Below are positions 6,009 to 57,666 of a stretch of 64,000 nt of DNA, one piece after another; the stretch's first letter is position 1; every line of letters starts with the position of its first letter. The position numbers were made by a program, and so were the translations under genes. Location of the stretch: positions 41,786-105,785 of the forward strand of contig JAPLTG010000007.1 in assembly GCA_026398255.1 (NCBI GenBank), given 5' to 3'. This DNA is from Verrucomicrobiota bacterium. Its GTDB lineage: Bacteria; Verrucomicrobiota; Verrucomicrobiia; Chthoniobacterales; Terrimicrobiaceae. Under the pieces are notes generated by a model. The model had not been told where the DNA came from and made no database searches. It saw only the letters and a program-made list of their open reading frames with translations.

Positions 6009-6035
6009 TTGATCAACACTTTTTAGAATTTCGGT

Positions 6036-6215: not shown

Positions 6216-6403
6216 GCCAATTCCAATTCCTCTACTTTTTTGATTCCGAGAATCGCGCTTGTTGAGAAAGTGTCATAAAGATCGCGAAGGTGATCTTTAA
6301 GGTCTTGAAATGACTCCCCCTGTGTCCAATGGTCCGGATAATCATTCAAGTAGCCGAGAAACCTTCCATCTTCCACCCGCCAGTAGGTAAATTTTGTGGT
6401 CAT
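6212..6403 (-). CDS. hicB: HicB-like antitoxin (63 aa, UPF0150-type N-terminal domain only)
   Basis: Sequence MTTKFTYWRVEDGRFLGYLNDYPDHWTQGESFQDLKDHLRDLYD resembles HicB/UPF0150 partners. It is translationally coupled to the HicA ORF. Confidence 0.65.
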   Translation of the reverse strand: MTTKFTYWRVEDGRFLGYLNDYPDHWTQGESFQDLKDHLRDLYDTFSTSAILGIKKVEELELA

Positions 6404-6508
6404 AAATCTAATCTAACCACTCGAAGGGCTAATGTCATTTATTTTTTGCCAAACTATGTTCCTCACAAAGATTTTTTACCTCTCAAGGCTTGCAAAATAT
6501 GTTAAAGC

Positions 6509-6697
6509 GCGGGGCCCTTTCGCTGAAATTGTAGAGGCTGTCTATGACTGCCGATCTTCGCGCCTTTCTTCAGGTTTGGGCTGCACCAACAACTCCCACT
6601 CCGGCAAAGCCAACGAGGACGTAGGCGCTCCTGCCGAGCTTGGTTATCCCACCTCAAAATGCCCAAATGTCATTAATTATTGCCCGACCCCCTTGAC
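6509..6697 (+). repeat. Copy B of the ~190-bp dispersed repeat
   Basis: Aligns end to end with 5817-6008, same orientation. The two copies flank the hicB-hicA pair. Confidence 0.8.
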
Positions 6698-6788
6698 TCC
6701 TCTTTGACATTGGTAACTCATTTTCCCAGGGCATAACCCCCAGTCTATGTGTAACCCATGTCCTCGGTCAGCTTGTAACCGATCTCCT

Positions 6789-7001
6789 CGGTTCATACCC
6801 TCCACCGAGGTCCAATCCAAGGCCCGCGCCGACGCCATTCAGCGCGAATCCGAAGCTCTGCAGCAAAGCCCCCAAATCATCCGTCTCCGAGCCATCGAGA
6901 AATGGGACGGCACACTTCCCCGCATCACCGGCCAATCCGCCGTTCCCTTCCTGAACATCGAGGAGGTCGCCCGCGACACCCCGCCCCGCCCGACTCCCTA
7001 G
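6789..7001 (+). pseudogene. 3' relic of an SPFH/band-7 (prohibitin/HflC-like) gene
   Basis: The ORF 6747..7001 tail ARADAIQRESEALQQSPQIIRLRAIEKWDGTLPRITGQSAVPFLNIEE looks like the conserved C-terminus of SPFH proteins. No SPFH core lies upstream, only repeats and hicBA. Confidence 0.45.
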
Positions 7002-7012
7002 GGCAGTAGGGC

Positions 7013-8038
7013 AGGGGTCAGTCCCACATATTGACATATTTTCAGTTTCAGCGAGGATTTTTTCCATGGCTAGACAACTGAGAGTCGAATACGCGGGAGC
7101 GATTTACCATGTGATGAGCCGGGGGGACCGGCAGGAGTCGATCTTTTGGGATGAGGAGGATCGGCGGCGGTTTTTGGGGACGCTTGGGGAGGCTAGCGTG
7201 CGGGACGGTTGGCAGGTGCATGCGTATTGCCTGATGGGAAATCATTTTCATCTGGTGCTGGAAACTCCCCAACCCACGCTGGTGGCGGGAATGAAGTGGT
7301 TTTTGGGAACCTACACGCAGCGCTTCAATGCGCGGCACCGGTTGCGCGGGCATCTCTTTGCGGGGCGCTACAAGTCGCTGCTCGTGGATGGCTCGGACGA
7401 CATGTATTTGCGGGTGGTCTGCGACTATGTGCATTTGAATCCAGTGCGGGCGGGGTTGATTGCGGCGGATGGGAAATTGGCGGACTACGCTTGGAGCAGT
7501 TTCCCGGAATATTTGAAGGAGCCCGATCAACGGCCCGGGTGGTTGCGTGTGGATCGGCTGCTGGGGGAGATGGGTATCCAGCGGGACGATGCGACGGGAC
7601 GGCGGGAGTTTCAGGAAACGATGGAAGCGCGGTGTCGCGCGGAGGGGCATGCGGACGAGGAACTCTGGAGCGCAATCCGGCGGGGATGGAGATTTGGCGC
7701 GGAGGATTTTCTGGAGAGGTTGATGGAGACCGAGGCGGTGGCAGGCGCGAACCGGGAGATTCACGAAGGAGGGGCGGCGGCTGAAACGATGGAGGAAAAA
7801 GCGCGGCGTCTCATCGTGGAGTTTCTGGAAAAAAGGGGGACGAGGCTTGAGGAGTTGCGCGCACGAAGCAAGGGCGATGCGCTGAAAATCGAGCTGGCTG
7901 GGGAACTCAGAAAAAATACAGCGATGTCGATGGCTTGGATCGCGAATGAACTCCACGCCGGCGCTCCGAACAGCGTGTGGAATGCGCTGGCGAAGTGCAG
8001 GAGGAGCCAAGATGTGTGAATATGTGGGACTGACCCCT
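7013..8038 (+). mobile_element. IS200/RAYT-like unit: HUH-Y1 transposase gene bracketed by perfect 20-bp inverted repeats
   Basis: AGGGGTCAGTCCCACATATT (7013-7032) is the exact reverse complement of AATATGTGGGACTGACCCCT (8019-8038). The right arm overlaps the last base of the transposase stop codon. Confidence 0.75.
7066..8019 (+). CDS. IS200-like / REP-associated tyrosine transposase (Y1 HUH) with a C-terminal helix-turn-helix-like extension
   Basis: Contains AIYHVMSRG, the HUH motif GNHFHLVLE, and the catalytic-Tyr region CDYVHLNPVRAGL. At 317 aa it is longer than minimal RAYTs. Confidence 0.8.
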   Translation: MARQLRVEYAGAIYHVMSRGDRQESIFWDEEDRRRFLGTLGEASVRDGWQVHAYCLMGNHFHLVLETPQPTLVAGMKWFLGTYTQRFNARHRLRGHLFAGRYKSLLVDGSDDMYLRVVCDYVHLNPVRAGLIAADGKLADYAWSSFPEYLKEPDQRPGWLRVDRLLGEMGIQRDDATGRREFQETMEARCRAEGHADEELWSAIRRGWRFGAEDFLERLMETEAVAGANREIHEGGAAAETMEEKARRLIVEFLEKRGTRLEELRARSKGDALKIELAGELRKNTAMSMAWIANELHAGAPNSVWNALAKCRRSQDV

Positions 8039-8093
8039 AATCGGCCGGAGAATCGCGTGGATGCGCTGGCGGGGTTGTGAGATTCTGCCGCGC

Positions 8094-8726
8094 ATGGACC
8101 GCTCCGAACGCGCGAAGGAATTGCTGAAACGGCTGCCGAAAATTTATCCCGAGGCGCATTGCGAACTCGACCACTCGAATCCGCTCGAGCTTTTGGTCGC
8201 CACGATCCTCAGCGCGCAATGCACCGACAAGCGCGTGAATCTCGTGACGCGCGAGCTATTCCAGCGTTGTCGCACAGCGCAAGATTACGCCGCAATTTCG
8301 CAAGAAGAGCTCGAGGGCCTCGTCCGCTCCACAGGATTCTATCGGAACAAGGCGAAAAACATTCGCGCCATGGGGCAAGTGCTCGTCGAGCGGCATTCGG
8401 GGCAGGTTCCCGATAGCCTAGCCGAACTCGCCTCCATTCCCGGCGCGGGACGCAAAACGGCCAATGTCGTCCTCGGAAATGCCTTTTCTAAAAATGAAGG
8501 CGTCGTCGTGGATACCCATGTCGGCCGCCTCTCTCAACGGCTCGGCCTCACCAAATTCAGCGACCCGATCCGCATCGAGCAGGACTTGATGAAACTCTTC
8601 CCGCAGGCTTGTTGGACCGACCTGAGCCACTGGTTAATCTTCCACGGCCGCCGGCGTTGTGCCGCGCGCAAGCCGGATTGCGCGAATTGCGAGCTGAGCG
8701 ATTTCTGCCCCTCGGCTAAAGGCTGA
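8094..8726 (+). CDS. nth: Endonuclease III
   Basis: Contains LLVATILSAQCTDKRVN, HhH-GPD (IPGAGRKTANVVL), and a C-terminal 4Fe-4S Cys cluster (CAARKPDCANCELSDFC). Start moved to the internal ATG at 8094. Confidence 0.9.
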   Translation: MDRSERAKELLKRLPKIYPEAHCELDHSNPLELLVATILSAQCTDKRVNLVTRELFQRCRTAQDYAAISQEELEGLVRSTGFYRNKAKNIRAMGQVLVERHSGQVPDSLAELASIPGAGRKTANVVLGNAFSKNEGVVVDTHVGRLSQRLGLTKFSDPIRIEQDLMKLFPQACWTDLSHWLIFHGRRRCAARKPDCANCELSDFCPSAKG

Positions 8727-8757
8727 AAAAATAAAAAATTGCGTAAACCAAAATGGA

Positions 8758-8889
8758 GGGATGGTCTCCGTGCCATCCCATTCTCGCGGTGCAGCCGCGC
8801 ATATCCCGCCCCCGAGCATTTGGTAACCCACCTCAGCGACTGACTTTACCCGCCGGCGCCGGCGCCTTCGGACGACACGGAGGTCGTCC
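8758..8889. terminator. GC-rich hairpins/palindrome in the convergent spacer between nth and the oxidoreductase gene
   Basis: GGGATGG-N8-CCATCCC (8758-8779), palindrome CGCCGGCGCCGGCG (8851-8864), and GGACGAC-N6-GTCGTCC (8870-8889). There are no clear U-tracts. Confidence 0.3.
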
Positions 8890-8904
8890 CTCCACAACAG
8901 CGAA

Positions 8905-10131
8905 TCAACCGCCCAAAACGACGCGGGCTGCTTCGAAGCCAGACTGAATCGCGGCTTGAATGCTCGCGCCATTTTTCCAATCCCCACACGCAAGAACGCC
9001 GTTCGGCAAGTGAGGCTTGGGTTTTGAGGCGAAGCCGGGCGGTTGGTCAGGGACAGCGTTTGGAACAAAAATGGTCTCAAGGGGAATGAGCGATTCTCGC
9101 GCATGGGGAAAAATGGCGGCGATTTCCTCTGCGGCGCCGGAGACAAGTTCGGCGCGTTCCAATCCCTCAAAATTCAAAATGGAAGCCGAGACAAGATGCC
9201 AACCGGCCGGGGCAAATTCCGGCGCGATGTTGGTGATCTGGACGAAGTGCCGAACGAGGCGGCGGGCGCCAGCGGGAAGAATCAGGCACGGGCGGTCGTA
9301 GAGGGAGATTTTGGATTTGAAATAAACAACCGCCACGCCACGCGGCGCAGGGGGCGGTGGCTGGTGGAGGAGTTGGTGAAGCCAGGATTCATCGAGCGCC
9401 AGAACGAGCCGCGAGAAAGGGAGGATTTCGCCGGACTCGAGAATCACGCGGTCGCCATCGATCGCGATAACTTTGGTATTCAGCCGGATTTTTTGCGGGG
9501 GGAGTTGCGCGGCGATGGACTCGGGGAGCGCTTGGATGCCGCCGGCGGGAATCCAAGCGCGGCCGGTGGCAAATTTTTTGAGGTAGTATCGAAAGAGCGA
9601 GGAACTGGTGGAGAGCTCGTTGTCGAGCAGCACACCGCCGAAAAATGGCTGGGCGAAGCGGGAGAGGAATTCCTCAGAAAATCCACGCCAAAGCAAAAAC
9701 TCACGGGTGGAAAGATCGTTTGCCGAAGCGCAGGCATCGAGGAGCGCACGATCCAGGGAGAGCAAAACCTCCGCTCCCAATCGCGCGAGGCGGAGTTTGT
9801 CACCGAACGACAAGGCATCGCCCGCGATGGCGACGATGGGATTTTCCAGCGGGCTGGCGAGTCGGGAGAATTTGCCGGAATGGTGAATCAAAGCGCCGGA
9901 CTCGAACCAGCGGGGCTGCAGCGCCGCAACATCCACAACCTCCCCAACCGCGCGGTAGGAACTGAGGACGACCTGAAAGCCATGATCGAGCGTGAAGCCG
10001 TCGCGGTGCGTGGTGCGTTGGCGTCCGCCAACCTGCGGCGCGGCCTCGAGCAAAAGAAAATCCCGACCGGCGCGTTGTAGCTCCAGCGCGCAGGACAACC
10101 CGGCCAAGCCTGCACCGACGACGAGAATCAT
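8905..10131 (-). CDS. NAD(P)/FAD-dependent oxidoreductase (amine oxidase / desaturase-like)
   Basis: Dinucleotide-binding N-terminus MILVVGAGLAGLSCALELQRAGRDFLLLEAAPQVGGR. Start moved to the ATG at 10131, because the listed start would overlap leuA. Confidence 0.8.
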   Translation of the reverse strand: MILVVGAGLAGLSCALELQRAGRDFLLLEAAPQVGGRQRTTHRDGFTLDHGFQVVLSSYRAVGEVVDVAALQPRWFESGALIHHSGKFSRLASPLENPIVAIAGDALSFGDKLRLARLGAEVLLSLDRALLDACASANDLSTREFLLWRGFSEEFLSRFAQPFFGGVLLDNELSTSSSLFRYYLKKFATGRAWIPAGGIQALPESIAAQLPPQKIRLNTKVIAIDGDRVILESGEILPFSRLVLALDESWLHQLLHQPPPPAPRGVAVVYFKSKISLYDRPCLILPAGARRLVRHFVQITNIAPEFAPAGWHLVSASILNFEGLERAELVSGAAEEIAAIFPHARESLIPLETIFVPNAVPDQPPGFASKPKPHLPNGVLACGDWKNGASIQAAIQSGFEAARVVLGG

Positions 10132-13348: not shown

Positions 13349-13353
13349 ACTCG

Positions 13354-13378
13354 CGCAGAGGCGCAGGGACGCAGAGAG
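13354..13378 (+). repeat. Left arm of an inverted-repeat bracket (CGCAGAG-triplet type)
   Basis: CGCAGAGGCGCAGGGACGCAGAGAG. It matches the reverse complement of 13768-13793 at 22 of the first 23 positions. Confidence 0.8.
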
Positions 13379-13385
13379 TTTTGAA

Positions 13386-13799
13386 ATGAGCGAAAACGAG
13401 ATTGGGACAATTGTGATTGAGGAAGCGATCCAACTTCACCGGGAGCTTGGCCCGGGTTTGTCCGAGTCCGTTTATGAAGTCGTCCTTGCGGATTCTCTCA
13501 AAAAACGCGGCTTGGATGTGCGCAGGCAAGTGCCCGTGCCAATCCATTATCAGGGCATCAAATTCGATGAGGGATTTCGCGCCGATCTCATCGCGGAAAA
13601 CAAAGTGCTTCTCGAACTCAAATCCGTGGAGGCCGTGAATCCAGCCCATAAGAAACAGGTGCAGACCTATCTGCGGCTGACTGGATTGAAGCTCGGCTAC
13701 TTGCTCAACTTCGGTGAGGCTATTCTGAAAACCGGCATTACCCGATGTGTCAACGACCTTGAAGAATCTCCTCTGCGTCCCAGCGCCTCTGCGGGATAA
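13386..13799 (+). CDS. GxxExxY family protein (PD-(D/E)XK nuclease-like fold)
   Basis: Contains GPGLSESVYEVVL (GxxExxY), then ...FRADLIAENKVLLELKSV...YLRLTGLKLGYLLNF. The last ~10 codons are read from the right repeat arm. Confidence 0.8.
   Translation: MSENEIGTIVIEEAIQLHRELGPGLSESVYEVVLADSLKKRGLDVRRQVPVPIHYQGIKFDEGFRADLIAENKVLLELKSVEAVNPAHKKQVQTYLRLTGLKLGYLLNFGEAILKTGITRCVNDLEESPLRPSASAG
13768..13793 (-). repeat. Right arm of the inverted-repeat bracket
   Basis: CTCCTCTGCGTCCCAGCGCCTCTGCG. A near-identical arm occurs at 52231-52257. Confidence 0.8.
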
Positions 13800-14907: not shown

Positions 14908-15870
14908 ATGAGCCGCCGGGGCAGAATTCTAGACCAACCTTTGCCGCGCCATCGAGACGCTTGGGCGAGATGGATTCTCCCCGCCTTGATCGCCTCGATC
15001 CTCATCCACCTCCTTCTTTGGAATTGGAGCCGCCATGTGCCTATCGACCGGATGAGCGATGCGTTCTACGACAAAATCGTCCCCCGCACTTTCAACATCG
15101 AGCGCGCCGATATCGACCCGCGTTTGCTCGAGCCCGAGCCGGAGGAAAAAAAGCCCGACCCCGTGGACTTCAAAATTCCCGAGGAGAAAATCTCCCTCGA
15201 CCGCCAGACTGCCAAGGCGCCGGATCAAAAAACCACGCCTCCCCTCGACCAGGCGATCGTGAATGAGAAGCCCCAAATCCCCGATCTTCCGAAATCCGAC
15301 GCCACCTCGCCTTCGAGCCACCTCGTTCCCGTGGACGACTCGCTCGTCAAGGATCTCACGCGTGACATGCCGTTGGTTTCAGAAACCACGACCACAGATC
15401 CGATCCTGGCCCTGCGCGCCTCAGAGGCCACACCCGGCCTGCCAGGCGGCGGAGCCGGATTTTCCAATCTCGACGAACTCCTCGCTCAGACCGGCCCGCT
15501 CACCCAGGACACAGCCCCCATCTTGCTCCCCGGCGATTTGCTTTTTGAATACGACGACCACCGCCTCCAGCCCGGCGCTTTGGCGAGCTTGGAAAAACTC
15601 GGCCAACTCCTGAAGCGCAATCCCAAGGCCCGCTTTGTCATCGAAGGCCACTCCGATTCCTTCGGCACCGACGAATACAACCTCACACTCAGCCGACTCC
15701 GCGCGGACTCCGTTCGCATCTGGCTCATCGACATGGTGGGCATTCCCGCTGAGTCGATTTCTACAATCGGCCATGGAAAATCCCGACTGGCCGTTCCCTC
15801 CACAGGCACCATTGAAGAACAGAAAATCAACCGCCGCGTGGAAATCCTGATCAAAGACGGCCCGCCATGA
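14908..15870 (+). CDS. OmpA/MotB-domain membrane protein
   Basis: N-terminal TM segment, Pro/Glu-rich linker, and a C-terminal OmpA-like domain (FEYDDHRL...FVIEGHSDSFGTDEYNLTLSRLRADSV...NRRVEIL). Confidence 0.8.
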   Translation: MSRRGRILDQPLPRHRDAWARWILPALIASILIHLLLWNWSRHVPIDRMSDAFYDKIVPRTFNIERADIDPRLLEPEPEEKKPDPVDFKIPEEKISLDRQTAKAPDQKTTPPLDQAIVNEKPQIPDLPKSDATSPSSHLVPVDDSLVKDLTRDMPLVSETTTTDPILALRASEATPGLPGGGAGFSNLDELLAQTGPLTQDTAPILLPGDLLFEYDDHRLQPGALASLEKLGQLLKRNPKARFVIEGHSDSFGTDEYNLTLSRLRADSVRIWLIDMVGIPAESISTIGHGKSRLAVPSTGTIEEQKINRRVEILIKDGPP

Positions 15871-18608
15871 GTCTCCTCACAGAGCCAAAGGCCCTTGAGG
15901 CCTCCGCCATCGAACTTTCGAAAAAAGCGCGTGCGGAAAACGGCTCTCCGATTGCCCTGTTTAAAAATTTCCTGCAAGTCGAGGAGGAGCGGCTTCGCGT
16001 GTGGCATCGCGACGGAGGTGGAGGCCGAGAAATCGCCCGTCACCGCGCCGACACGGTGGACATTTTGCTCCGCGAGCTTTTCGATGGAATCGTGAGGGAG
16101 GTCGCCGCCGCGCCTCTCGCCGGACGCCTCTGCGTGATGGCCTTCGGCGGCTACGGCCGTCGCGAACTCACCCCGATGAGCGATATCGATGTGCTTTTTC
16201 TCCAAGATAAAAGCACCCGCGACAAGGAGGCCGAGGAGATCATTCGCCGCACGGTCGTCGCCCTCTGGGACATTGGCTTCAAGGTCGGGCAAGCCACCCG
16301 CAACATCTCTGAAGCGATCGAAAAATCGAACGAGGACATGGTGACAAAAACCTCCATGCTCGAGTCGCGATACCTCGCAGGAGACCGGGAGATTTTCAAC
16401 CGCTTCAAGGAGCGTTTCCAGCGCGAGTGCATCGTCGGGCGCGAGCAGGAATACATCGGCTGGCGCCTCGCCAACCAAGGCGAGATGAGGGCCAAATACG
16501 GCCTGAGCGTTTTCATGCAGGAGCCGAATATCAAGAATGGCACCGGCAGCCTGCGCGACTACCAGAGCCTTCTGTGGATTTCCCAATTCAAACTCGGGCT
16601 GAATTCCACCGCGAAACTGGTGGAGGGCAAAATCCTCCGCGATGCCGACCGCAAGCGTCTGGATAAAAGCTACGACTTCCTCCTGCGCACCCGCGCCGAG
16701 ATGCAATATCTCAACGGCCGCTCGGCCGATCAGCTCACACTCCAGCTCCAGGGCCGCGTCGCTCAAGCCTTCGACTACCCGCAGAAAAACATCCTCCGCA
16801 AAGTCGAAGCCTTCATGCGCGATTACTACGGCCATGCTCGCACCATCTTTCTCGTCACCGAAGCCGCCCTTGGAAAAATGGAGGCGCGCTCCGCGCCAGA
16901 GCCGTCCCGCTTGATGCGTCTCCTTGGCTCCCGCCCGAAGTCCGAGAAATTCGACAGCTTCATCGCCCGCGGCGGGCAATTGATTCCGGAGTCCCGCGAG
17001 ATTTTTAACGACGATCCCTACCGACTCCTGCGCGCCTTCCAATACGCCCAAGTGCGCCAACTCGAATTCCACCCCGAGCTGATGGATCTTGTGTCGCGTC
17101 GCCTGCACCTCATCGACCGCACCTTCCAATACGCGGCCTCCGCCCGGGAGACCTTCTTTGCGATTCTTTCGCGCAAGGGCGAGGTGGGCCGCATCCTCCG
17201 CCTCATGCACAACCTCGGCGTGCTCGGTCGATACATCCCCGAATTCGGCGCGCTCGATTGCCTCGTTCAACACGAATTTTATCACCGCTACACCGCCGAC
17301 GAACACACCCTCGTTTGCATTGAAAAACTCGACTCGGTTCTTTTATCCGACCAACGCCGGCTCCAAGGCTACCGGACGATTTTCCAAAAGCTCGAGGACC
17401 CCTCCATCCTCTATCTCTCCGTCCTGCTCCACGACACCGGCAAGGCTGCGAATTCGCGTCATCACGAAGAAGCTGGCGCCTTGATCGCCCACAAGGTCGC
17501 TCGTCGTCTGCAACTCCCACCCGAGCGCCGCCGGATGCTCATCACGCTCGTCGATTCGCACTACACGCTCTCGAAGATGTCGCAGACCCGCAACCTCGAG
17601 GACCACTCAACCACCGAGGAATTCGCCCGCATTGTCGGGAACAGGAAAAACCTCGACGCGCTCATGCTCCTCACGCTCGCCGATGGCATGGGAACCAGTG
17701 ATGAAAATTGGTCGGACTGGAAAGAGGGCCTTGTCTGGACGCTCTATCGCCGCTGCGCCCGCTACCTCGAAGGCGGCGTGGATGCGATGGAGGAAACTCG
17801 CCGCAACCGCCTTCTCCAGAAAAAACTCGTTCTTGAAAAACTCGACGACTCTTTTGGGGACGAGTGCGAGGCCCATTTTCAATTCATGCCGGACCGGTAT
17901 TTCCAAATGTTCGAGCCGGAGGAAATCGCCCAGCACCTGCGCCATTTCCGCGAATTTTTCCTGAGCCGCCTCTCCAGCGACTCGCTCGCCGCCGCGCCAG
18001 CCCTGCGCTGGATTCCGAAGCCCGACAAAGGCCACACCGAAGTCTGGGTCTCCAGCTGGGACCGTCCCCGGCTCCTGGAGCGCATCGCGGGCGCGTTCGT
18101 CTCCGCCCGACTCAACATCCTTGGCGCGGATATTTTCACCCGCACTGACAGCCTGGCCCTCGACATCTTCCGGGTCTGCGGCGGGAATTTCGAGCCCGTG
18201 CCATCGCCACGCGAGATAGCCTCCATCGAAAAACGCCTCGCTGAGGCCCTCTCTGTCGAGGAATTCGATTTCACTCCGCTCATGGATAAGGACAGCCGGC
18301 TCCGGAGCTACAAGCTTTCCCAGGAGTTCGACCTCCCCACGGGCATCACGATCGATAACGATTCACACCCCGTCTACACGCTCATCGAGATTCAAACCCC
18401 CGACCGCCTTGGCCTGCTCTACGACCTGCTCCGCGCCATGAGCGGCGAGGGCGTATTGATCGAGATCTCCCGCATCACCACCGAGATGGATGTGGCGATG
18501 GATTCCTTCTATGTCTACGGCCGCGACGGCGGCAAAATCACCTCGCGCACCGCAATCAGGAATCTTCAGAAAGTCCTGCACAACGCGGCGGTGAAAACCT
18601 CCGAATGA
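15867..18608 (+). CDS. glnD: [Protein-PII] uridylyltransferase/uridylyl-removing enzyme
   Basis: 913 aa with an NTase region (AFGGYGRRELTPMSDIDVLFL), an HD domain (LLHDTGK), and two C-terminal ACT-like domains. Its start forms an ATGA overlap with the upstream gene. Confidence 0.85.
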   Translation: MSLLTEPKALEASAIELSKKARAENGSPIALFKNFLQVEEERLRVWHRDGGGGREIARHRADTVDILLRELFDGIVREVAAAPLAGRLCVMAFGGYGRRELTPMSDIDVLFLQDKSTRDKEAEEIIRRTVVALWDIGFKVGQATRNISEAIEKSNEDMVTKTSMLESRYLAGDREIFNRFKERFQRECIVGREQEYIGWRLANQGEMRAKYGLSVFMQEPNIKNGTGSLRDYQSLLWISQFKLGLNSTAKLVEGKILRDADRKRLDKSYDFLLRTRAEMQYLNGRSADQLTLQLQGRVAQAFDYPQKNILRKVEAFMRDYYGHARTIFLVTEAALGKMEARSAPEPSRLMRLLGSRPKSEKFDSFIARGGQLIPESREIFNDDPYRLLRAFQYAQVRQLEFHPELMDLVSRRLHLIDRTFQYAASARETFFAILSRKGEVGRILRLMHNLGVLGRYIPEFGALDCLVQHEFYHRYTADEHTLVCIEKLDSVLLSDQRRLQGYRTIFQKLEDPSILYLSVLLHDTGKAANSRHHEEAGALIAHKVARRLQLPPERRRMLITLVDSHYTLSKMSQTRNLEDHSTTEEFARIVGNRKNLDALMLLTLADGMGTSDENWSDWKEGLVWTLYRRCARYLEGGVDAMEETRRNRLLQKKLVLEKLDDSFGDECEAHFQFMPDRYFQMFEPEEIAQHLRHFREFFLSRLSSDSLAAAPALRWIPKPDKGHTEVWVSSWDRPRLLERIAGAFVSARLNILGADIFTRTDSLALDIFRVCGGNFEPVPSPREIASIEKRLAEALSVEEFDFTPLMDKDSRLRSYKLSQEFDLPTGITIDNDSHPVYTLIEIQTPDRLGLLYDLLRAMSGEGVLIEISRITTEMDVAMDSFYVYGRDGGKITSRTAIRNLQKVLHNAAVKTSE

Positions 18609-40125: not shown

Positions 40126-40219
40126 TTAACCACAGAGGACACAGAGAGCACAGAGGGCTAAAAAACATGAACTCCCAACTCCTCTTCTTCTCCGTGTCCT
40201 CCGAGCTCTCCGTGGTTAA
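40126..40219. repeat. CACAGAG-triplet inverted-repeat hairpin (degenerate copy)
   Basis: Left arm TTAACCACAGAGGACACAGAGAGCACAGAGG (40126-40156). Right arm CTTCTCCGTGTCCTCCGAGCTCTCCGTGGTTAA (40187-40219). The outer TTAACCAC/GTGGTTAA pair is perfect and the inner part is about 70% complementary. Confidence 0.7.
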
Positions 40220-47602: not shown

Positions 47603-47730
47603 GAATAGTCCACCCGATGATTAGCGAGGAGGGCTCTGCTTGTCAGAGCCGCAACAGCGAGGTTGCGAAAGCCGCCGCGGGCCTGACAAACAGGCCCCTC
47701 CTTCGTTTCCGCAGGTTTTTTTCATAACTG

Positions 47731-48459
47731 ATGCCTTCGTTGAACGACCGCGACATGGTTCGGCTCCAAGCTGAGGAATTCGAGTCCGCCAGCTTGCGGG
47801 AAATCCTTGGGTGGGCCTGGGAAACCTTCGGCGAGCGCGCGGCCTTTGGAACAAGCTTCCAAGGGGCTGGCCTCGTTGCCATGCACACGGCCTACACGAA
47901 CGGATTCCGCTTTCCCGTTTTCACCATCGACACGGGCCTGCTTTTTCCCGAGACGCTCGAATTGAAAACGCAGATCGAATCGCGCTTGGGTTTCACGATT
48001 GAATCCCTGCACCCCGAACAAACCGTCACCGAACAGGCCGCCGAACTCGGTCCCGAGCTTTGGAAATCCAAGCCCGATCTCTGCTGCTCGCTTCGCAAAG
48101 TCATTCCACTCCAAAAAAAACTCGCCTCGCTTGATGTCTGGATCACCGGCCTCCGCCGCCAGCAAAACGACACGCGGGAGAACATCCGGATCGTCGAGCT
48201 CTACCACTTCGATGTCCTGCGCGATCGCTACATCATCAAATTGAATCCCATGGCCTCATGGTCCCGCGATCAAGTGCAGGCCTACATCCGCGAGCACGAC
48301 TTCCCCGTCAACGCCCTCGCCGCGCGCGGCTATCGTTCGATCGGTTGCCAACCCTGCACACGCCCCGTCGCCGACGGCGAAAGCGAGCGCGCCGGCCGCT
48401 GGACCGGCTTCGACAAAAGCGAATGCGGCATCCACACCTTCCTCGGGAGCAATATTTGA
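47731..48459 (+). CDS. cysH: Adenylyl-/phosphoadenylyl-sulfate reductase (thioredoxin-dependent, Fe-S type)
   Basis: Contains VFTIDTGLLFPET, the CC...CxxC cluster Cys residues (DLCCSLRKV, GCQPCT) and a terminal ECGIH. Confidence 0.88.
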   Translation: MPSLNDRDMVRLQAEEFESASLREILGWAWETFGERAAFGTSFQGAGLVAMHTAYTNGFRFPVFTIDTGLLFPETLELKTQIESRLGFTIESLHPEQTVTEQAAELGPELWKSKPDLCCSLRKVIPLQKKLASLDVWITGLRRQQNDTRENIRIVELYHFDVLRDRYIIKLNPMASWSRDQVQAYIREHDFPVNALAARGYRSIGCQPCTRPVADGESERAGRWTGFDKSECGIHTFLGSNI

Positions 48460-48473
48460 CGCCGACCGAGGGA

Positions 48474-48586
48474 TTGACCACAGAGGACACAGAGAGCACA
48501 GAGTTTTTCTAACGGAATTGTTTTATGCGAAATTCCTCCCTCAAAGCTCTTCTCCCCTCCGTGTGCTCTGTGTCCTCTGTGGTCAA
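48474..48586. repeat. CACAGAG-triplet inverted-repeat hairpin (best-preserved copy)
   Basis: TTGACCACAGAGGACACAGAG (48474-48494) is the exact reverse complement of CTCTGTGTCCTCTGTGGTCAA (48566-48586). The arms continue imperfectly inward to 48503 and 48557. Confidence 0.85.
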
Positions 48587-48595
48587 TTCTTCTAA

Positions 48596-49285
48596 ATGAT
48601 CCTCGAGCTTTTGGAGTGGGCAGTGACACCCTGTCCGTGGTTCGCGCGAAGGAATGGATTGCTCGCCGCTCAGATTGGCATTCGCCATCGCGTGAAACGC
48701 TGCCGAGCGACTTGGAATGGACATCTGGAGGCATGCAGAAAATTTGTCGCCGACGCAGTCGGATCCAGAACTGCTGACGAAAACCTCGTGATTCTCGGGA
48801 GTGGACACCTGAACGATTTCGACCTCGCATTTCTTCAACGCCGTTTTCAAAAAATCACGCTCGTCGATGCGCTCCATCCGATCGAAATTCAAATCCAAGC
48901 GAGTCTTTCCCGAGGCCGCCTTCGCCTGATCACGACCGATCTCTCCAGCCCCACCGCCGAGATCGAGGATTTGGTTTCGCGTTCGAGTTGGACCATTTCA
49001 AGCTGCCTGCTTTCCCAGCTCCCGCTCTTTTCCAATGAGGACTCCCCCGCCCTCTTCGATCGACACCTTGCGCTTTTGCAAAAATCTCCCCGCGCCGTGC
49101 TCATCAGCGATGTCGCGAAACGCCTCGGCTCCGCCCCTTGGGAATCATTGATCGAAAACCATCCCCTCCCCCACCCCGCCGCCGAGTGGTCATGGCTCAT
49201 CTCCCCGCCCGGCGAGTCCGTCCCCGATCCCGAAGAACGCCTCGTCCAAGCCTGCTTGATGCACTCGGACCCTTCAGACAGTTGA
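48596..49285 (+). CDS. Hypothetical protein (229 aa)
   Basis: Long ORF with host-like GC and no family recognised. Its last ~30 codons have a diverged duplicate at 52455-52544. Confidence 0.55.
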   Translation: MILELLEWAVTPCPWFARRNGLLAAQIGIRHRVKRCRATWNGHLEACRKFVADAVGSRTADENLVILGSGHLNDFDLAFLQRRFQKITLVDALHPIEIQIQASLSRGRLRLITTDLSSPTAEIEDLVSRSSWTISSCLLSQLPLFSNEDSPALFDRHLALLQKSPRAVLISDVAKRLGSAPWESLIENHPLPHPAAEWSWLISPPGESVPDPEERLVQACLMHSDPSDS

Positions 49286-49290
49286 TCTCC

Positions 49291-49316
49291 CGCAGAGGCG
49301 CATCGATGCAGAGGGG
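49291..49316 (+). repeat. Left arm, CGCAGAG-triplet type, bounding the low-GC island
   Basis: CGCAGAGGCGCATCGATGCAGAGGGG. It shares CGCAGAGGCGCA...GCAGAG with the arm at 13354 and starts 5 nt after the stop of the 48596 ORF. Confidence 0.7.
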
Positions 49317-49811
49317 AGATTTTGGGTTGGGAGTTTTTCGATGGCCGGAATTCAATTTAATATCTGGTCCACCTGTAAATGTCCTATCGGCATTTTTAGG
49401 ATGTCGGCCGAAATGATCTCTCGATTCCTCCAAAAACTCGGTCGCGCGATCCGCCAATTTCTCCCCCCAAGCCGCTCTGCAAGGGACTCCCCTCACCAAT
49501 CTGAATTTCGCTTTTGAACCATTAACACAACTTCCACCCAGTCGGCGATCGCAGGAAAATCTCCCGCTTAGGCGCAGGAATCTTGAGTGATGGGCCCCCT
49601 ATCTCAATAGTCCCCGCCGAGCGGACCCAAGTTTCAAGCGCGAACACTCCATTTCTTTTCAATCTCCCGCTGAGCACGCGAGGTGCAGAGGAAGGGATTT
49701 TCGAATTGTCCAAGATTTTGCGTGGCTGCACCGGTGCCCTTAATCAAAAAAAATCTTGTGATTCCAGAAATCCCACACATAAACTGCTGTTATTAAGCTT
49801 AACCGGAATAC

Positions 49812-50276
49812 ATGTTCACCTACCGCGATAAACAATCAACTCGTCACAGCCGCATACGATCTTTTTTGAAAACCGATCCGTTTGTGGCAGTGATTCTATC
49901 GGCTATCGATTTTGAATGGACAGTCCGGAGGGCGATCCTAGGTCTCTCAGGATTGCCCACAAAACCAATTCATGAAATTTTCAAAAGTGAGCGTTCAGGC
50001 GGTCTCTCTGGACTCCAAAATCACTGGAAAAAGCTTGTCAAGTCGCGGCTCGGCTCCGATCTCGCATCGATCGTCCCCAACTGGGAATTTTTTTCTAATC
50101 GTGCCTTTGGGTTAAGAAATAAGTTAGTCCATGGAGCTGAGGGCAGAGTTACCCCAGAGCATGCAGGGAAAATCGTTGATTCGATTCTCGCCGGTTCAGT
50201 TGCTGTTGCGAATTATGCCGAAGCTAACAATGCGACCATCTTTGGAAAGAAAATCAGGCGCTTGAAGACCAGATAA
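49812..50276 (+). CDS. Hypothetical protein, putative HEPN-fold (Rx4H) domain
   Basis: 154 aa and predicted helical by composition. It contains AFGLRNKLVHG, with R102-x4-H107 (nt 50115-50132), the spacing of the HEPN RNase motif. The assignment rests on this motif only. Confidence 0.5.
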   Translation: MFTYRDKQSTRHSRIRSFLKTDPFVAVILSAIDFEWTVRRAILGLSGLPTKPIHEIFKSERSGGLSGLQNHWKKLVKSRLGSDLASIVPNWEFFSNRAFGLRNKLVHGAEGRVTPEHAGKIVDSILAGSVAVANYAEANNATIFGKKIRRLKTR

Positions 50277-50303
50277 TCATAAAATCTGAAATTCGATTTC
50301 TCT

Positions 50304-51812
50304 ATGAATAACATCCTATCCATTTGCATTTTACTAGTATTACAAGCTTCGCTTCTATTTTCCCAGACGCCTTGGCAGGACTTCGTTAATGAGCAGAAAA
50401 CCAAAGCAGATGCTGGGGATCCAGATGCTCAAGGGATTTTGTCTACTTTAATTCAGCTCGGAGCCGCTTCTGTATCAAATGATCAAGCTTACTACCTTGC
50501 AATAAATTCTACAAATGCCTCAAGTTCTTTTGGTAAATATGCCCTTGGGCGTTGTTATGAATTAGGCATCGGAGTAGACAAGAATGACTTAAAGGCCCAC
50601 GATTTGTTTACCCAGTCAATTCCAAATCTTAAAAATATGGCAGTCCAAGGAAATTCATATGCTGCCTTTCTGATTGGAGGAGCTTATCTTAAAGGTCGCG
50701 GAGTTGACAAAGATGAGACTGAATCAGACAAATGGTTTTTAAAGTCTGCTGAAGATGGTAATGCGTTCTCCCAATATAACATTGGAAAGACCTACCAAGA
50801 AGGCCAAGGAGTAGAAAAAGACCCTGCTGCATCGGCTAAATGGATGCAATTATCAGCTGAAAATGGATATAAGCTTGCTCAAGTAGCATTAGGTGTTTAC
50901 TTTAATATTGGATATGGCGTCGCTAAAGATGATACCGAAGCTGCAAAGTGGTTTCACAAAGCAGCCGAGCAAGGGGATGCAAATGCACAAAGTAGCTTGG
51001 GCTTTTGCTACCAATACGGCAAAGGGGTATCAAAAGACGATGCCAAGGCTCTTAAATGGTATCTCAAAGCCGCTGAGCAGGGAGATGCGCTACATCAATC
51101 AGCTTTGGGCCTATATTATTCTAATGGAGGTGGATTAAAAGAAACTGACAATATGGAATTTGCTACTAAATACCTTGCCCAAGCTAGAGAAGAGGCTGTA
51201 AAGTGGTTTCGCAAAGCTGCAGAGCAAGGAAATTCGGGAGCTCAAAATAACTTAGGTGCATGCTATAAAGATGGCAAAGGAGTTCAAAAAGACATTACGG
51301 AAGCTATCAAATGGTTCCAAAAATCAGCTGAACAGAATGACCCTCATGCTCTAACTAATTTGGGAGATTGTTATTTTGAAGGCGTAGGTTTCCCAAAAGA
51401 TTTAGAAGCAGCAGAAAAATACTATCGTAAGGCAATTAGCCAAGGTTTTAGTGAAGCTGAAAAAAAACTTAATAAGATACCTTCAATACGGAGCCAGAAA
51501 ATTAAGGAAAATATTATTGATGCTAAGAAGAGGTATATGGAAATGGCAATTGACGATGCGCCTGTCCTCTCATCTGGACCATCAAAAGAAGTTATTATTG
51601 ATGGAATGTTGCCTTTATGCAGTGTTTTAGAAAATCAATATAAAGACACTTCATTTAAAATCCAGCGTGGCAACACTCAAATATCTAACGGCTACAAAGG
51701 TATTCCAATTGGTGTGGAAATGTTTCCAATCAGATTAAGTGGCTCCCAAATACAATTTACATATTATTTCTATCAAGATGAATTCGATGATTGGAAAATT
51801 GTAGAAAAGTAA
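50304..51812 (+). CDS. Secreted Sel1-like repeat (SLR/TPR-family) protein with an unassigned ~110-aa C-terminal domain
   Basis: Signal peptide MNNILSICILLVLQASLLFSQ, followed by about 9-10 Sel1 repeats (e.g. AKWFHKAAEQGDANAQSSLGFCYQYGKGVSKDDAKALKWYLKAAEQGD). Confidence 0.85.
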   Translation: MNNILSICILLVLQASLLFSQTPWQDFVNEQKTKADAGDPDAQGILSTLIQLGAASVSNDQAYYLAINSTNASSSFGKYALGRCYELGIGVDKNDLKAHDLFTQSIPNLKNMAVQGNSYAAFLIGGAYLKGRGVDKDETESDKWFLKSAEDGNAFSQYNIGKTYQEGQGVEKDPAASAKWMQLSAENGYKLAQVALGVYFNIGYGVAKDDTEAAKWFHKAAEQGDANAQSSLGFCYQYGKGVSKDDAKALKWYLKAAEQGDALHQSALGLYYSNGGGLKETDNMEFATKYLAQAREEAVKWFRKAAEQGNSGAQNNLGACYKDGKGVQKDITEAIKWFQKSAEQNDPHALTNLGDCYFEGVGFPKDLEAAEKYYRKAISQGFSEAEKKLNKIPSIRSQKIKENIIDAKKRYMEMAIDDAPVLSSGPSKEVIIDGMLPLCSVLENQYKDTSFKIQRGNTQISNGYKGIPIGVEMFPIRLSGSQIQFTYYFYQDEFDDWKIVEK

Positions 51813-52230
51813 ATAACCGGAACCAGCTGTTGGGGACTTTTCGAGTAAAGGCTTATGTCCTTCACATTGTCATATTTTGTAGATGCTCTGAAAGCAGGAT
51901 AGCCAAAAAACATTCGCAGAAATTACGGTGTGGGAGTTTCTTTCTGCCATAAACTCCCAATTTCTCGCCCGTCCGACAATTCAACCCTCCAGTAAATCAC
52001 CCAGAGGGACGATGCCGATGCGGGACGAGGTTTGGCCGTGGATGATTGTGCCGCAGCGGTCGTCGACATTTGTGCACACAGCCTCCCGCTTGTCGGGTGC
52101 GGAGCGGAGGTGGGGTCCGCGTGCGGCTGATTATGCGTGAGCGTGGTCAGCTACATGTCATTTTTTCAGGAGACCTTTATGAGTGGATGCCGTCCAGCGT
52201 GGGAAAATCGTAATGTGTTACCATAATTCC

Positions 52231-52257
52231 CCTCCGCGTCCCAGCGCCTGCGGGAGG
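52231..52257 (-). repeat. Right arm, CGCAGAG-triplet type, bounding the low-GC island
   Basis: CCTCCGCGTCCCAGCGCCTGCGGGAGG. The stretch GCGTCCCAGCGCCT is identical to the arm at 13768, and its reverse complement pairs imperfectly with 49288-49316. Confidence 0.7.
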
Positions 52258-52991: not shown

Positions 52992-53768
52992 TTGCCAATG
53001 AGCGCGGATTTTTTTTCGGCCGGATCCTCGGACTACGCGAGATACCGCCCGCGCTATCCTGAGGATTGGTTCGATTGGCTTGCCGCTCAGTGTTCCGTGC
53101 GGAGTTTGGCGTGGGATTGCGCCTGCGGGAGCGGTCAAGCCACCGAGGAATTGGCGCGCCGGTTCGAAAAAATCATCGCGACCGACGTCAGCTCCGCCCA
53201 ACTCCGGAATGCTCCCCTCCTCCCGAATGTCGAATGGAGATTGGCTTCCGGCGAAGCGAGTGGATTGGATGCCAGGAGTATCGATTTGGTAACGGTCGCC
53301 CAAGCTCTCCACTGGCTGGACCTGCCGAGGTTTTGGCATGAGTGCCGTCGCGTTTTGAAGCCCGAGGGGATTATCGCGGTCTGGGGCTATGGCATCGCGA
53401 GCTTGAGTCACCCATCGGTCAATCAGGTTTTCCAGGATTTCTATCACGGAGTGGTTGGCGAATATTGGCCGAAGGAACGCCGGATCGTCGAAGAGGGCTA
53501 TGTGGGCGTCGATTTTCCATTTCAAGAAATCCCTGGGTCGGCCTTTGAGATGGTGCAATCTTGGGATGTCGAGCATCTCGCGGGATACTGCTCGAGTTGG
53601 TCCGCCACAGACCGCTACCGCAAGGCAACGGGCCATGATCCGATCCCTGAGTTGAGGGCGAAACTGACGCGAGAACTTGGTTCTGCAACCACTCAAATCC
53701 TCTGGCCGTTCTTCGCTAGAGCCGGCCGAATGTTCCATGTGGAACAAAACGCAGAAGAAGAAAATTAA
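52992..53768 (+). CDS. Class I SAM-dependent methyltransferase
   Basis: Motif I is AWDCACGSGQATEEL and the post-II region is VAQALHWLD...LKPEGIIAVWGY. The C-terminal tail and the stop codon lie in repeat elements. Confidence 0.8.
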   Translation: MPMSADFFSAGSSDYARYRPRYPEDWFDWLAAQCSVRSLAWDCACGSGQATEELARRFEKIIATDVSSAQLRNAPLLPNVEWRLASGEASGLDARSIDLVTVAQALHWLDLPRFWHECRRVLKPEGIIAVWGYGIASLSHPSVNQVFQDFYHGVVGEYWPKERRIVEEGYVGVDFPFQEIPGSAFEMVQSWDVEHLAGYCSSWSATDRYRKATGHDPIPELRAKLTRELGSATTQILWPFFARAGRMFHVEQNAEEEN

Positions 53769-53860
53769 CCACGGAGGGCACGGAGGGCATGGAGAATGAA
53801 GGAAGAATTGCCTTCGCTGTCTTGATTTTCCTCTGTGCTCTCGGTGTCCTCTGTGGTCAA
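53765..53860. repeat. CACGGAG/CACAGAG-triplet inverted-repeat hairpin
   Basis: Left arm TTAACCACGGAGGGCACGGAGGGCATGGAG (53765-53794). Right arm CCTCTGTGCTCTCGGTGTCCTCTGTGGTCAA (53830-53860). The TAA stop of the methyltransferase (53766-53768) lies inside TTAACC. Confidence 0.75.
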
Positions 53861-53875
53861 ATCCTCGTTTAACCC

Positions 53876-54337
53876 ATGAATCCCACGCTCCATGTCGTTC
53901 TCGTCGAACCCGAAATCCCACCGAATACGGGCAATGTGGCGAGGCTTTGCTTGGCGGTCGGGGCGCGTCTGCATCTCGTGGGGCCGTTGGGATTTTCCTT
54001 GGATGAAAAGGCGCTCCACCGCGCGGGAATGGATTACTGGAAGGAATGCGATGTGAGGCTTTGGGATTCCTTTGAAACTCTCCGTGCCGAAGCAGGCGAG
54101 GGGTCGAGGTTTTGGTTTTTTACAACGAAGGCCAAGCGGGGCTTATGGGAGGGGGAATTTCAGAAAGGTGATTGGTTGGTTTTCGGAAGGGAATCGAAGG
54201 GTTTGCCCGAATCGCTGCTTCATGCGAACGCGGAGTCGTGCCTGAGAATTCCAATGCGAAGTGAGGCCCGCAGTTTAAATCTGGCGACCTCGGTTGGGAT
54301 CGGTGTTTTCGAGGCATTGCGGCAGGGGGCTTATTGA
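53876..54337 (+). CDS. trmL: tRNA (cytidine/uridine-2'-O)-methyltransferase TrmL (SpoU family)
   Basis: Contains LHVVLVEPEIPPNTGNVARLC...LVGPLGF...FGRESKGLP...SLNLATSVGI. Confidence 0.88.
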   Translation: MNPTLHVVLVEPEIPPNTGNVARLCLAVGARLHLVGPLGFSLDEKALHRAGMDYWKECDVRLWDSFETLRAEAGEGSRFWFFTTKAKRGLWEGEFQKGDWLVFGRESKGLPESLLHANAESCLRIPMRSEARSLNLATSVGIGVFEALRQGAY

Positions 54338-54364
54338 CCACAGAGAACACAGAGTTCACAGAGG
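54334..54364 (+). repeat. Solo CACAGAG-triplet arm
   Basis: TTGACCACAGAGAACACAGAGTTCACAGAGG. The trmL TGA stop (54335-54337) lies inside TTGACC. I found no partner arm before secA. Confidence 0.7.
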
Positions 54365-54693
54365 AGGGGAAGGGAGGGTTTTTGCGGATTCGGGTGTTCC
54401 ATTTGAAACAAGTCGGGAATTTTATGGAGATCGAGAAAAAACCGAGGCCCTAAAATGGCAGGGAAGGGCTGTTTCTCGGAAATGGAAGGGGGTATGTGCG
54501 GAAGCGGGGGTCGCACAGTTTTAGGGCGATTTACGGCGAATTAGAAAGGGGTCGGTTTTTCGGGTGTATTTTGTAGCCACCCCACTCTGCTGGGATGCAA
54601 ACGGGTGGCATTGTTGGGAGCGGCTCGTGGAACGGCAGAGGACTGCCGTTTCTACAACAGAGTGGTTTGTTCCATGTGGAACAAATTCCGAGA

Positions 54694-57666
<2,973 letters not shown>

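Follow-up and report, generated by a model that had tools for sequence, protein, structure and literature searches.

We analysed a 64,000-nt stretch (the window throughout this text) of contig JAPLTG010000007.1 from a Verrucomicrobiota bacterium labelled Terrimicrobiaceae, in which short inverted repeats built from CRCRGAG-type heptamers lie at the 3' ends of genes. At the focal copy, just downstream of cysH, a left arm at 48474-48503 (TTGACCACAGAGGACACAGAGAGCACAGAG; a TTGACC cap and three CACAGAG units at 9-nt spacing) faces a right arm at 48557-48586 (CTCCGTGTGCTCTGTGTCCTCTGTGGTCAA), which ends 9 nt before the ATG of the open reading frame (ORF) at 48596-49285. The outer 21 bp (48474-48494 with 48566-48586) pair perfectly and lie 71 nt apart, as an initial annotation of this DNA had described; the inverted repeat as a whole (I1) has 36-nt arms that are 86% complementary, and its predicted fold has an energy of -65.8 kcal/mol (z -9.5). 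Two gene-less hairpins and a solo arm listed in the same annotation are also present. The first hairpin, at 40126-40219 (arms 40126-40155 and 40190-40219), lies between a deoxyhypusine-synthase-like gene (stop at 40118) and MTHFR (ATG at 40241), and the second, at 53765-53860 (arms 53765-53794 and 53831-53860), lies in the spacer between a methyltransferase gene and trmL; no strand is assigned to the hairpins or their arms. The solo arm, at 54334-54363 on the plus strand, lies between the convergent genes trmL (+) and secA (-). It has neither a downstream partner nor a stable fold, but it and the stretch 53829-53860 make up an inverted repeat on either side of trmL (I2). In this region, secA is the long minus-strand ORF at 54694-57666, and the overlapping plus-strand ORF at 54595-56520 is spurious; genes switch strand just past the solo arm, consistent with a change in GC skew near 54 kb.

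The window holds seven CAC-type arms (three hairpins and one solo arm), each consisting of a cap and three CACRGAG units at 9-nt spacing. Allowing up to three mismatches, CACRGAGNNCACRGAGNNCACRGAG matched the window seven times, compared to 0.00 expected from 100 shuffles, and the hairpins fold on the plus strand with energies of -31.6 to -65.8 kcal/mol and z-scores of -3.6 to -9.5. Arms with CGCAGAG units are found at two further places. A left arm at 13351-13376 (+), 2 nt past the stop codon of a DUF1295 gene, and a right arm at 13771-13796 (+), which ends 16 nt before the ATG (13813) of a CMAS-like methyltransferase gene, form a 26-nt inverted repeat that is 92% complementary (I6). A degenerate left arm at 49286-49313 (+) directly follows the stop codon of ORF 48596-49285 and marks the left end of a low-GC island, and a right arm at 52232-52255 (+), a close match to the arm at 13771 except for a 2-nt gap, lies inside this island, about 310 nt before its right boundary. 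The initial annotation had taken the CGCAGAG arms for transition variants of a single family with a common TTRACCAC cap. The CGCAGAG arms do exist, but they belong to a sister type, whose units are spaced by 8 nt instead of 9 nt and whose cap is TCGCG or TCTCC in place of TTRACCAC.

The placement of the arms relative to genes is close to that first proposed (0-15 nt from a stop codon). Left arms start 7 nt past the stop codon of the deoxyhypusine-synthase-like gene, 14 nt past that of cysH, 2 nt past that of the DUF1295 gene and, as delimited here, 0 nt past that of ORF 48596-49285 (2 nt to position 49288, where the arm was first placed), while the stop codons of the methyltransferase gene (TAA, 53766-53768) and of trmL (TGA, 54335-54337) lie inside the TTRACC cap itself. 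Right arms in the window end 9-21 nt ahead of the next start codon. No stop codon occurs within the arms in any of the six frames, and since the arms are stop-free they give rise to spurious ORFs (for example 48258-48512 on the plus strand and 53765-54019 on the minus strand), as had been suggested for several small ORFs. The arm is a module of about 30 nt. Its outer cap contains TAA or TGA and is followed by three purine-rich units of 7 nt (consensus CRCNRAG), spaced by 8 or 9 nt; two inverted arms form a stem of 25-36 bp. The loops of the window hairpins have no common sequence among copies. At gathering thresholds, Rfam yielded no match across the whole window, and below threshold the focal hairpin had only plant microRNA-precursor matches, which are not meaningful. 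We conclude that the repeat is a real dispersed family that is usually paired, non-coding and located just past stop codons.

The CGC-type arms at 13351 and 13771 enclose a 0.4-kb ORF that had been interpreted as captured cargo. It proved instead to be a partner gene, GxxExxY, which is flanked by arms almost wherever it is found. The gene (13386-13799, plus strand, 137 aa) reads through the right arm at its 3' end, and its product matches both PF13366 (E 5e-39, 133.7 bits; cut-off 22) and TIGR04256 (E 3e-39, 134 bits; cut-off 35). The motif that gives the family its name reads G24-L-S-E27-S-V-Y30, and in an alignment of 42 homologs E27, D67, E77-x-K79 (here E77-L-K79) and Q91xxxY95 are invariant or nearly so, the residue pattern of RecB/Cas4-type PD-(D/E)XK nucleases. 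An AlphaFold2 model (pLDDT 88) gave weak matches (TM about 0.5) to its nearest solved folds, Cas4 SSO0001, LHK-Exo and lambda exonuclease; no relative was found by sequence in the PDB, and PADLOC and PHROGs returned weak Cas4-like matches only. The gene order DUF1295-GxxExxY-CMAS is kept in the window and in two relatives (L203 and L204), in which the nuclease is 96% and 85% identical. Between the window and L204, dN/dS of the nuclease is 0.12, and dS is 0.79 for the nuclease compared to 0.81 for the flanking DUF1295 gene. Since dS equals that of the flank and dN/dS is low, the cassette is an old, vertically inherited resident under purifying selection, and to judge from these values and the preserved residues the nuclease looks active and maintained. 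The cassette arms differ from those of L204 by one double-sided change (CAGGG on the left and CCCAG on the right in one, CAGAG and CTCAG in the other), and in L203 the left arm has lost one 8-nt unit.

The GxxExxY family comprises 25,367 clusters at 50% identity (E at most 0.001), with at least 8,000 close homologs of the window query, which places it among the larger uncharacterised nuclease families without an assigned function. Plasmids rarely carry the gene: it was found in 8 of 72,556 records, and most of these are megaplasmids or chromids. We also noted proteins of 263-295 aa (P0241, P0243, P0244 and others) with two GxxExxY stretches each, which are probably tandem cassettes read through their stop-free arms by gene callers. 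Many other homologs have N- or C-terminal extensions encoded by arms, and most GxxExxY-bearing contigs in the protein database are shorter than 2 kb.

The association between arms and nuclease holds across many loci. A metagenome scan with a three-sequence alignment as query returned at least 584 GxxExxY relatives, and 78 loci had enough flank. Inverted repeats (score at least 26) flank the gene at 65 of these 78 loci, with arms of heptamers such as CGCAAAG, CGCAGAG, CGCGAAG, CGCCAAG, CACAGAG or CACAAAG behind a short cap, and CRCNRAG heptamers are present in the flanks of 82 of 83 typed cassettes. The complementarity of arm to arm has a median score of 35 within an element, compared to 19 between elements. 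Moreover, arm type tracks nuclease clade: CAC-type cassettes make up only 13 of the 83, and yet for 10 of these 13 the nearest protein neighbour is also CAC-type. Cultured bacteria have this layout too. Examples are Sphingomonas parapaucimobilis, in which the arms TCACGCGAAGGCGCGAGGACGCGAAG and CGCGTCTTCGCGGCTTCGCGTGA enclose GxxExxY between fabD and fabG, and Bacteroides finegoldii, in which an arm of TTCACCACAGAG type participates in the order radA, TTCACCACAGAGGACGCAGAGGACACGGAG, GxxExxY, CTCTGTGACCTCTGTGTCCTCTGTGGTGAA, FAD protein gene; arms of TTAACCAC type enclose GxxExxY in L040 (twice), L050, L005 and L071. In 28 of 74 cassettes, no more than 12 nt separate the left arm from the start codon of the nuclease gene, and at the other end the stop codon is overlapped or abutted by the right arm.

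GxxExxY is the sole gene that consistently adjoins the arms. Apart from it, the only genes found between arms were host genes (trmL and genes for a response regulator, VapBC, QueD and ACP), which are merely flanked by neighbouring elements. Six-frame hmmsearch detected no GxxExxY remnants in the gene-less loops or in the island, and no four-helix-bundle (PF05635) genes turned up among the loci examined, as judged by an approximate motif. Arm families with other triple heptamers (for example TTGACAGGATTACAGGATTGACAGGAT, CCACTGACCACTAACCACTGACCAC, CGCAGAT units and GATGAAG units) lie beside CACAGAG arms in L056 (1440-1580, 3114-3330 and 6488-6700), L043, L052 and L105, and two of the L056 copies have about 250 nt in common. 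The three-unit design therefore exists in many sequence versions.

The repeat family is not confined to the source genome. The exact 21-mer TTRACCACRGAGRRCACRGAG occurs in at least 118 stretches of a one-genome-per-species collection, for the whole of which about 9 chance matches were estimated. The genomes that carry it are labelled as about 15 phyla, with labels that include Acidobacteriota, Planctomycetota, Verrucomicrobiota, Bacteroidota, Cyanobacteria, Chloroflexota, Nitrospirota, Gamma- and Betaproteobacteria, Myxococcota, Bdellovibrionota, Spirochaetota, Chlamydiota, Firmicutes, Omnitrophota and Armatimonadota. Isolates are among the carriers (Labilibaculum, Microcoleus and Alcanivorax), and arms are also found in Nostoc. 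Among the matches listed, about half have a partner arm 35-340 nt away, and at five loci a GxxExxY gene is enclosed or abutted by arms of this type; the genes that neighbour the arms are unrelated housekeeping genes. Behind many of the arms that seem to be solo lie arms from other heptamer families, and thus compound arrangements exist. In IMG/VR viral contigs the 21-mer is present in at least 120 stretches, and one arm-bearing viral contig encodes a portal protein.

In both collections the arms avoid coding DNA. They occupy short intergenic spacers, in which they often provide the stop codon of the gene upstream. Just 1 of 105 genomic arms and 10 of 139 viral arms fall within an ORF that extends open for at least 120 codons to either side, such that 99% of the genomic and 93% of the viral arms are outside long ORFs. 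Paired hairpins occur mostly between tandem genes (28), with five between convergent and five between divergent genes. Some viral arms lie in frame inside long ORFs (L262 at 5739, L272 at 5872 and L235 at 3804), where they read NHGGHGEHG (L262) or LTTEDTE, and one of the three lies inside a 1570-aa phage ORF; these cases are reminiscent of the palindromic-element insertions within Rickettsia genes.

Comparison with relatives labelled Terrimicrobiaceae or Chthoniobacterales revealed long vertical inheritance of the elements combined with turnover, in which hairpins are gained or lost, loops exchanged, units altered in number by slippage and both arms changed in concert. One of these relatives, L332 (97% MTHFR identity), is syntenic over the whole 39-55 kb region and keeps the hairpin between the deoxyhypusine-synthase-like gene and MTHFR, the hairpin between the methyltransferase gene and trmL, and the solo arm after trmL, with loops that are the same or nearly so. 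Specifically, the 40126 hairpin and its loop are identical in L332, with differences in the flanks only, and the 53765 hairpin is orthologous including its loop, with a 1-nt indel in a spacer. The hairpin after cysH behaves differently from these: the copies in the window, L332 and L333 (a 94% relative) are orthologous, but their loops, of 53, 17 and 34 nt, are unrelated. In L333 its left units are all CACGGAG and its right units all CTCCGTG, with a TAACC...GGTTAA cap, compared to CACAGAG and CTCTGTG units with a TTGACC...GGTCAA cap in the window and L332; the right arm in L332 has four units. These two-sided changes fit replacement or conversion better than point-by-point compensation. More distant relatives vary at this site, with no hairpin after cysH in L206 and a degenerate two-unit version in L207 and L208, and in L209 a TTAACCACAGAG hairpin lies in the tkt-cysH spacer instead of after cysH. 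The corresponding spacer of the window (47603-47730) contains two small GC-rich hairpins (GGGCTCTGCTTGTCAGAGCC and GGGCCTGACAAACAGGCCCC), which are partly conserved in L207. Three short-read Logan contigs with the window's exact CysH (L119, L120 and L121) all stop at position 48499 of the window, within the left arm; thus, the arm is multi-copy and breaks short-read assemblies.

Two islands start at an arm, and neither is cleanly enclosed by arms. The DNA between the CGC-type arms at 49314-52231 (+) has a GC content of 43.7%, compared to 56.5% for the window, and encodes an orphan 154-aa ORF (49812-50276) and a 502-aa Sel1-repeat protein (50304-51812). The initial annotation had described this 2.9-kb island as enclosed by the arms. 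Relative to L332, which is without the island and both CGC-type arms, the insertion begins at 49286 and reaches about 52565, and since it continues about 310 nt past the right arm, the island is not cleanly arm-bounded cargo; its left arm and left end are common to L333. The second case is L333 itself (4420-9940), in which the left arm after the deoxyhypusine-synthase-like gene is kept and is followed, before MTHFR, by 5.6 kb of other DNA that encodes a 211-aa ORF, a ParA-like protein, a CHAD protein and MazE/PIN, with no clear right arm. The suggestion that the repeat is a REP/MITE-like element able to capture cargo stands as far as copy number and presence or absence at orthologous sites are concerned, and the capture of cargo is supported only indirectly. 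A further insertion in L333, at 15443-16132, places a VapBC-like pair between groEL and tkt.

The window contains one further inverted repeat around a gene. The product of a 317-aa ORF at 7066-8019 (+) matches the IS200-like Y1 transposase domain PF01797 (E 2.4e-9), and the gene looks RAYT-like or IS200/IS605-like. An inverted repeat of 30 nt (AGGGGTCAGTCCCACATATTGACATATTTT; 7013-7042 and 8009-8038, 90% complementary) lies at its two ends, and the core of this repeat has two copies only in the window and is unrelated to the CRCRGAG arms.

The explanation that we favour, and that we judge about as probable as not, is that the hairpins are the terminal inverted repeats, and the gene-less or single-arm derivatives, of a very large family of small selfish or domesticated cassettes associated with the GxxExxY nuclease, comparable to REPIN-RAYT systems with a different enzyme. 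In its favour are the bracketing of the nuclease gene by arms, the agreement of arm type with nuclease clade, the conserved and apparently active nuclease, the dispersal and turnover of the hairpins and their intergenic placement. Under this proposal, the nuclease would recognise and cut the arms, as hairpin, cruciform or duplex, and the repair or recombination machinery of the host, for which the arms would serve as portable homology, would copy or relocate cassettes and arm pairs and might occasionally let other DNA in. In the transcript, the stem could close the insertion off, keeping the flanking stop and start codons adjacent, and could hide the ribosome-binding site of the nuclease and so limit its translation. 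Such an RNA stem would make insertion inside operons tolerable.

Several observations weigh against the nuclease-associated cassette. We infer the action of the nuclease on the arms, and PD-(D/E)XK hydrolases cannot carry out strand transfer alone. In the window itself, the arms around the nuclease gene are of the CGCAGAG type with 8-nt spacing, while the dispersed hairpins are of the CACRGAG type with 9-nt spacing, and no nuclease cognate to the latter was seen in the 64 kb. No direct repeat indicative of a target-site duplication occurs at the hairpin ends, no clean empty orthologous site was recovered from which to set the boundaries, and the loops in the window differ between copies, unlike those of typical MITEs (miniature inverted-repeat transposable elements). 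For a 21-mer to be nearly identical in so many phyla, it would have to be transferred horizontally on a large scale or to have a host partner that is universal. The viral contigs also count against the proposal: among the matches listed, 143 viral arms are solo and 7 paired, no GxxExxY gene lies in the 120 viral stretches that bear arms, the viral-contig collection as a whole, scanned separately, yielded a single relative, and no GxxExxY gene was found in 50,697 phage records. Finally, we compared the left arm with the reverse complement of the right arm in 21 well-formed gene-less pairs, and found that it matches the right arm of its own element (25.9/30) little better than those of other elements (25.0/30). 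At the seven variable positions there was a small excess in favour of the own arm (4.14 compared to 3.26; permutation p = 0.002). Since the complementarity of the arms is mostly explained by their common consensus, what is conserved is the sequence itself and not only the pairing, and therefore a sequence-specific partner is implied.

The main rival, which we consider less probable than the cassette, is that the arms are cis-acting RNA modules at cistron junctions of hosts and phages, and that for GxxExxY genes the stem is no more than a means of limiting their own translation. The two explanations are not mutually exclusive. Under the rival view, the cap would serve as stop codon, the purine-rich GGAG/GAGG-like units would supply or mimic a ribosome-binding site, and the pyrimidine-rich partner arm would mask this site or form a stabilising or processing stem, such as an RNase III site. 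The viral contigs provide evidence for it. There, the upstream ORF ends on the TAA or TGA of the cap at 25 of 132 arms and within 8 nt of the arm at 51 of 132, start codons are enriched 0-15 nt past the arm (42 of 80, compared to about 18 if uniform; for example CACGGAGgggaagaaATG), and the last GGAG unit is positioned like a ribosome-binding site. The abundance of arms in phage contigs without the nuclease, the position of the left arm close to the nuclease start in cassettes, the high stability of the stems as RNA and the conservation of arm sequence beyond pairing all argue in the same direction. In contrast, mismatch types indicate no transcribed strand (41 G:T plus T:G compared to 32 A:C plus C:A), for the 40126 hairpin it is the antisense strand that gives the better fold, and solo arms display no clear orientation bias relative to neighbouring genes, as assessed with crude ORF calls. 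Moreover, it is the pyrimidine arm, and not the purine arm, that precedes the downstream start codon in the window hairpins. The family is also present in Bacteroidota, which make little use of Shine-Dalgarno sites, and the gain and loss of hairpins and replacement of loops between close relatives would be unusual for a regulatory element that housekeeping genes need.

Less probable still is the explanation that the arms are arrays in the DNA to which a conserved host protein binds at three iterated sites, or that they are recombination hotspots because such palindromes are fragile, with the link to the nuclease secondary. Three evenly spaced heptamers with free spacers do resemble iterated protein-binding sites, arm sequence is conserved independently of the partner arm, and synteny breaks and islands start at arms. 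However, no candidate host protein is linked to the arms, GxxExxY and no other gene is consistently present beside them, and arm type co-varies with nuclease clade.

Two known kinds of element at gene 3' ends, integron-type attC sites and ordinary intrinsic terminators, are very improbable identities for the arms. The hairpins resemble attC/VCR sites in that they lie at gene 3' ends and form imperfect palindromes (94-113 nt) whose ends are conserved and whose loops vary. However, as judged by neighbouring genes and end sequences, the flanking genes are syntenic housekeeping genes rather than cassette arrays, the nuclease ORF lies inside a repeat pair and not between two complete sites, and the ends do not fit the attC core sites (3' ends GTTAAGA, GTCAATT and GTCAAAT, compared to R' GTTRRRY; 5' ends GATTAAC and AATTAAC, compared to R'' RYYYAAC). 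Likewise, stable stems past stop codons recall terminators, but no T-tract follows them (the tails read TTCTTCTAAATG, GAAATCC and ATCCTCG), and a terminator scan found no site that spans a full hairpin, its sole match to an arm being a minor 5-pair stem on the minus strand (53783-53769). Since canonical terminators with true T-tracts do occur elsewhere in the genome (at 41138 and 45346), terminator activity is unlikely. A coding role of the arms, in genuine small proteins or in peptide repeats of the TTEDTE or HRGHRE kind, can be dismissed almost entirely. The arms are open in all six frames, and a few viral ones lie in frame inside long ORFs, but nearly all are outside long ORFs, arms occur as inverted pairs, and orthologous copies differ by a 1-nt indel and complete loop replacement. 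We rejected outright an intrinsic terminator, an integron attC site, a CRISPR-like array, a coding peptide and chance.

A broader proposal, which we put forward only tentatively, is that the nuclease-associated cassettes constitute a second pan-bacterial system of a resident enzyme plus a hairpin population beside REPIN-RAYT, based on a minimal RecB/Cas4-like nuclease. The 30-nt arms would then be self-contained junction modules in hosts and phages, able to lie between genes or right at their ends and spread across phyla, that serve as portable homology for the entry of cassettes and islands; as such a module, each arm might combine a stop codon in its cap, three units like ribosome-binding sites and stop-free frames. 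The repeat looks like an undescribed REP/MITE-like element system (REP, repetitive extragenic palindromic). The initial annotation knew of no formal description, and our full-text literature searches with the arm sequences, GxxExxY, PDDEXK_3, PF13366 and TIGR04256 likewise found no paper describing the repeats, although earlier informal notice, for example in notes of the TIGR04256 curators, is possible; mentions of GxxExxY were incidental (a survey table that gives its function as unknown and a remark on gene neighbourhood).

These results have consequences for the enzyme family and for annotation. The bracketing of GxxExxY by arms, and the presence of arms in intergenic spacers of many phyla and phages, provide a concrete, testable substrate for the family. 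The arms also account for spurious ORFs of the TTEDTE and HRGHRE type, for gene calls that run through arms and for breaks in short-read assemblies, and arm sites can be flagged as places of synteny breaks and islands. If the link between nuclease and arms is true, the cassettes would represent a new class of domesticated or selfish element, and the pair of a sequence-specific nuclease and its hairpin might be of practical use.

The arms and their nuclease have likenesses to several known systems. Cyanobacterial STRR heptamer repeats, reportedly described by Mazel et al. in 1990, are said to be contiguous tandem arrays of 7-nt units. Both they and the arms are heptamers iterated in intergenic DNA, and the arms are also found in the cyanobacteria Nostoc and Microcoleus. 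However, the STRR repeats are of other sequences and form contiguous arrays, without a cap, a fixed number of three units or a linked nuclease. In the intervening sequences of 23S rRNA, a small ORF (four-helix-bundle or S23p, PF05635) lies between inverted repeats that are cut by RNase III. These resemble the cassettes in having a small ORF in a long stem within an essential transcription unit, closed off at the RNA level, but the cassettes lie in mRNA spacers and encode PF13366 rather than in 23S rRNA with PF05635. Free-standing homing endonucleases, which include the PD-(D/E)XK enzyme I-Ssp6803I, likewise place a small nuclease gene between conserved host genes (as with fabD and fabG here) and would spread, plausibly as here, by cleavage and homology-directed repair. 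Of the features of such genes, the layout (as in the insertion between fabD and fabG) and the nuclease fold are compatible with the cassettes. In contrast to them, the cassettes have their own repeated arms, gene-less derivatives and long vertical residence.

The closest comparisons are to mobile hairpin families. MITEs such as the Correia elements of Neisseria, ERIC and RUP share with the hairpins a size of about 100 nt, terminal inverted repeats, intergenic location, hairpins in transcripts and presence or absence between relatives, but here no target-site duplication was seen, loops are unrelated between copies in the source genome, and the presumed autonomous form carries a small nuclease instead of a DDE transposase. 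The REP/REPIN-RAYT systems described by Bertels and Rainey consist of a gene for an HUH Y1 transposase and lineage-specific REPs that are GTAG-headed palindromes. Here, the enzyme is a predicted PD-(D/E)XK hydrolase (PF13366) whose gene is often multi-copy, each arm is a cap with three spaced heptamers, the arm sequence is common to phyla and phage contigs, and the Y1_Tnp gene of the window is separate, with its own unrelated inverted repeat. Because enzyme class and lineage specificity differ, we conclude that the elements are not members of the REPIN-RAYT group. The organisation is nevertheless much the same: in both, short palindromic repeats occupy intergenic spacers as singlets or as inverted hairpin doublets, the enzyme gene is flanked by the same repeats in inverted orientation, and this gene is a resident, passed on vertically, amid a population of repeats that turns over.

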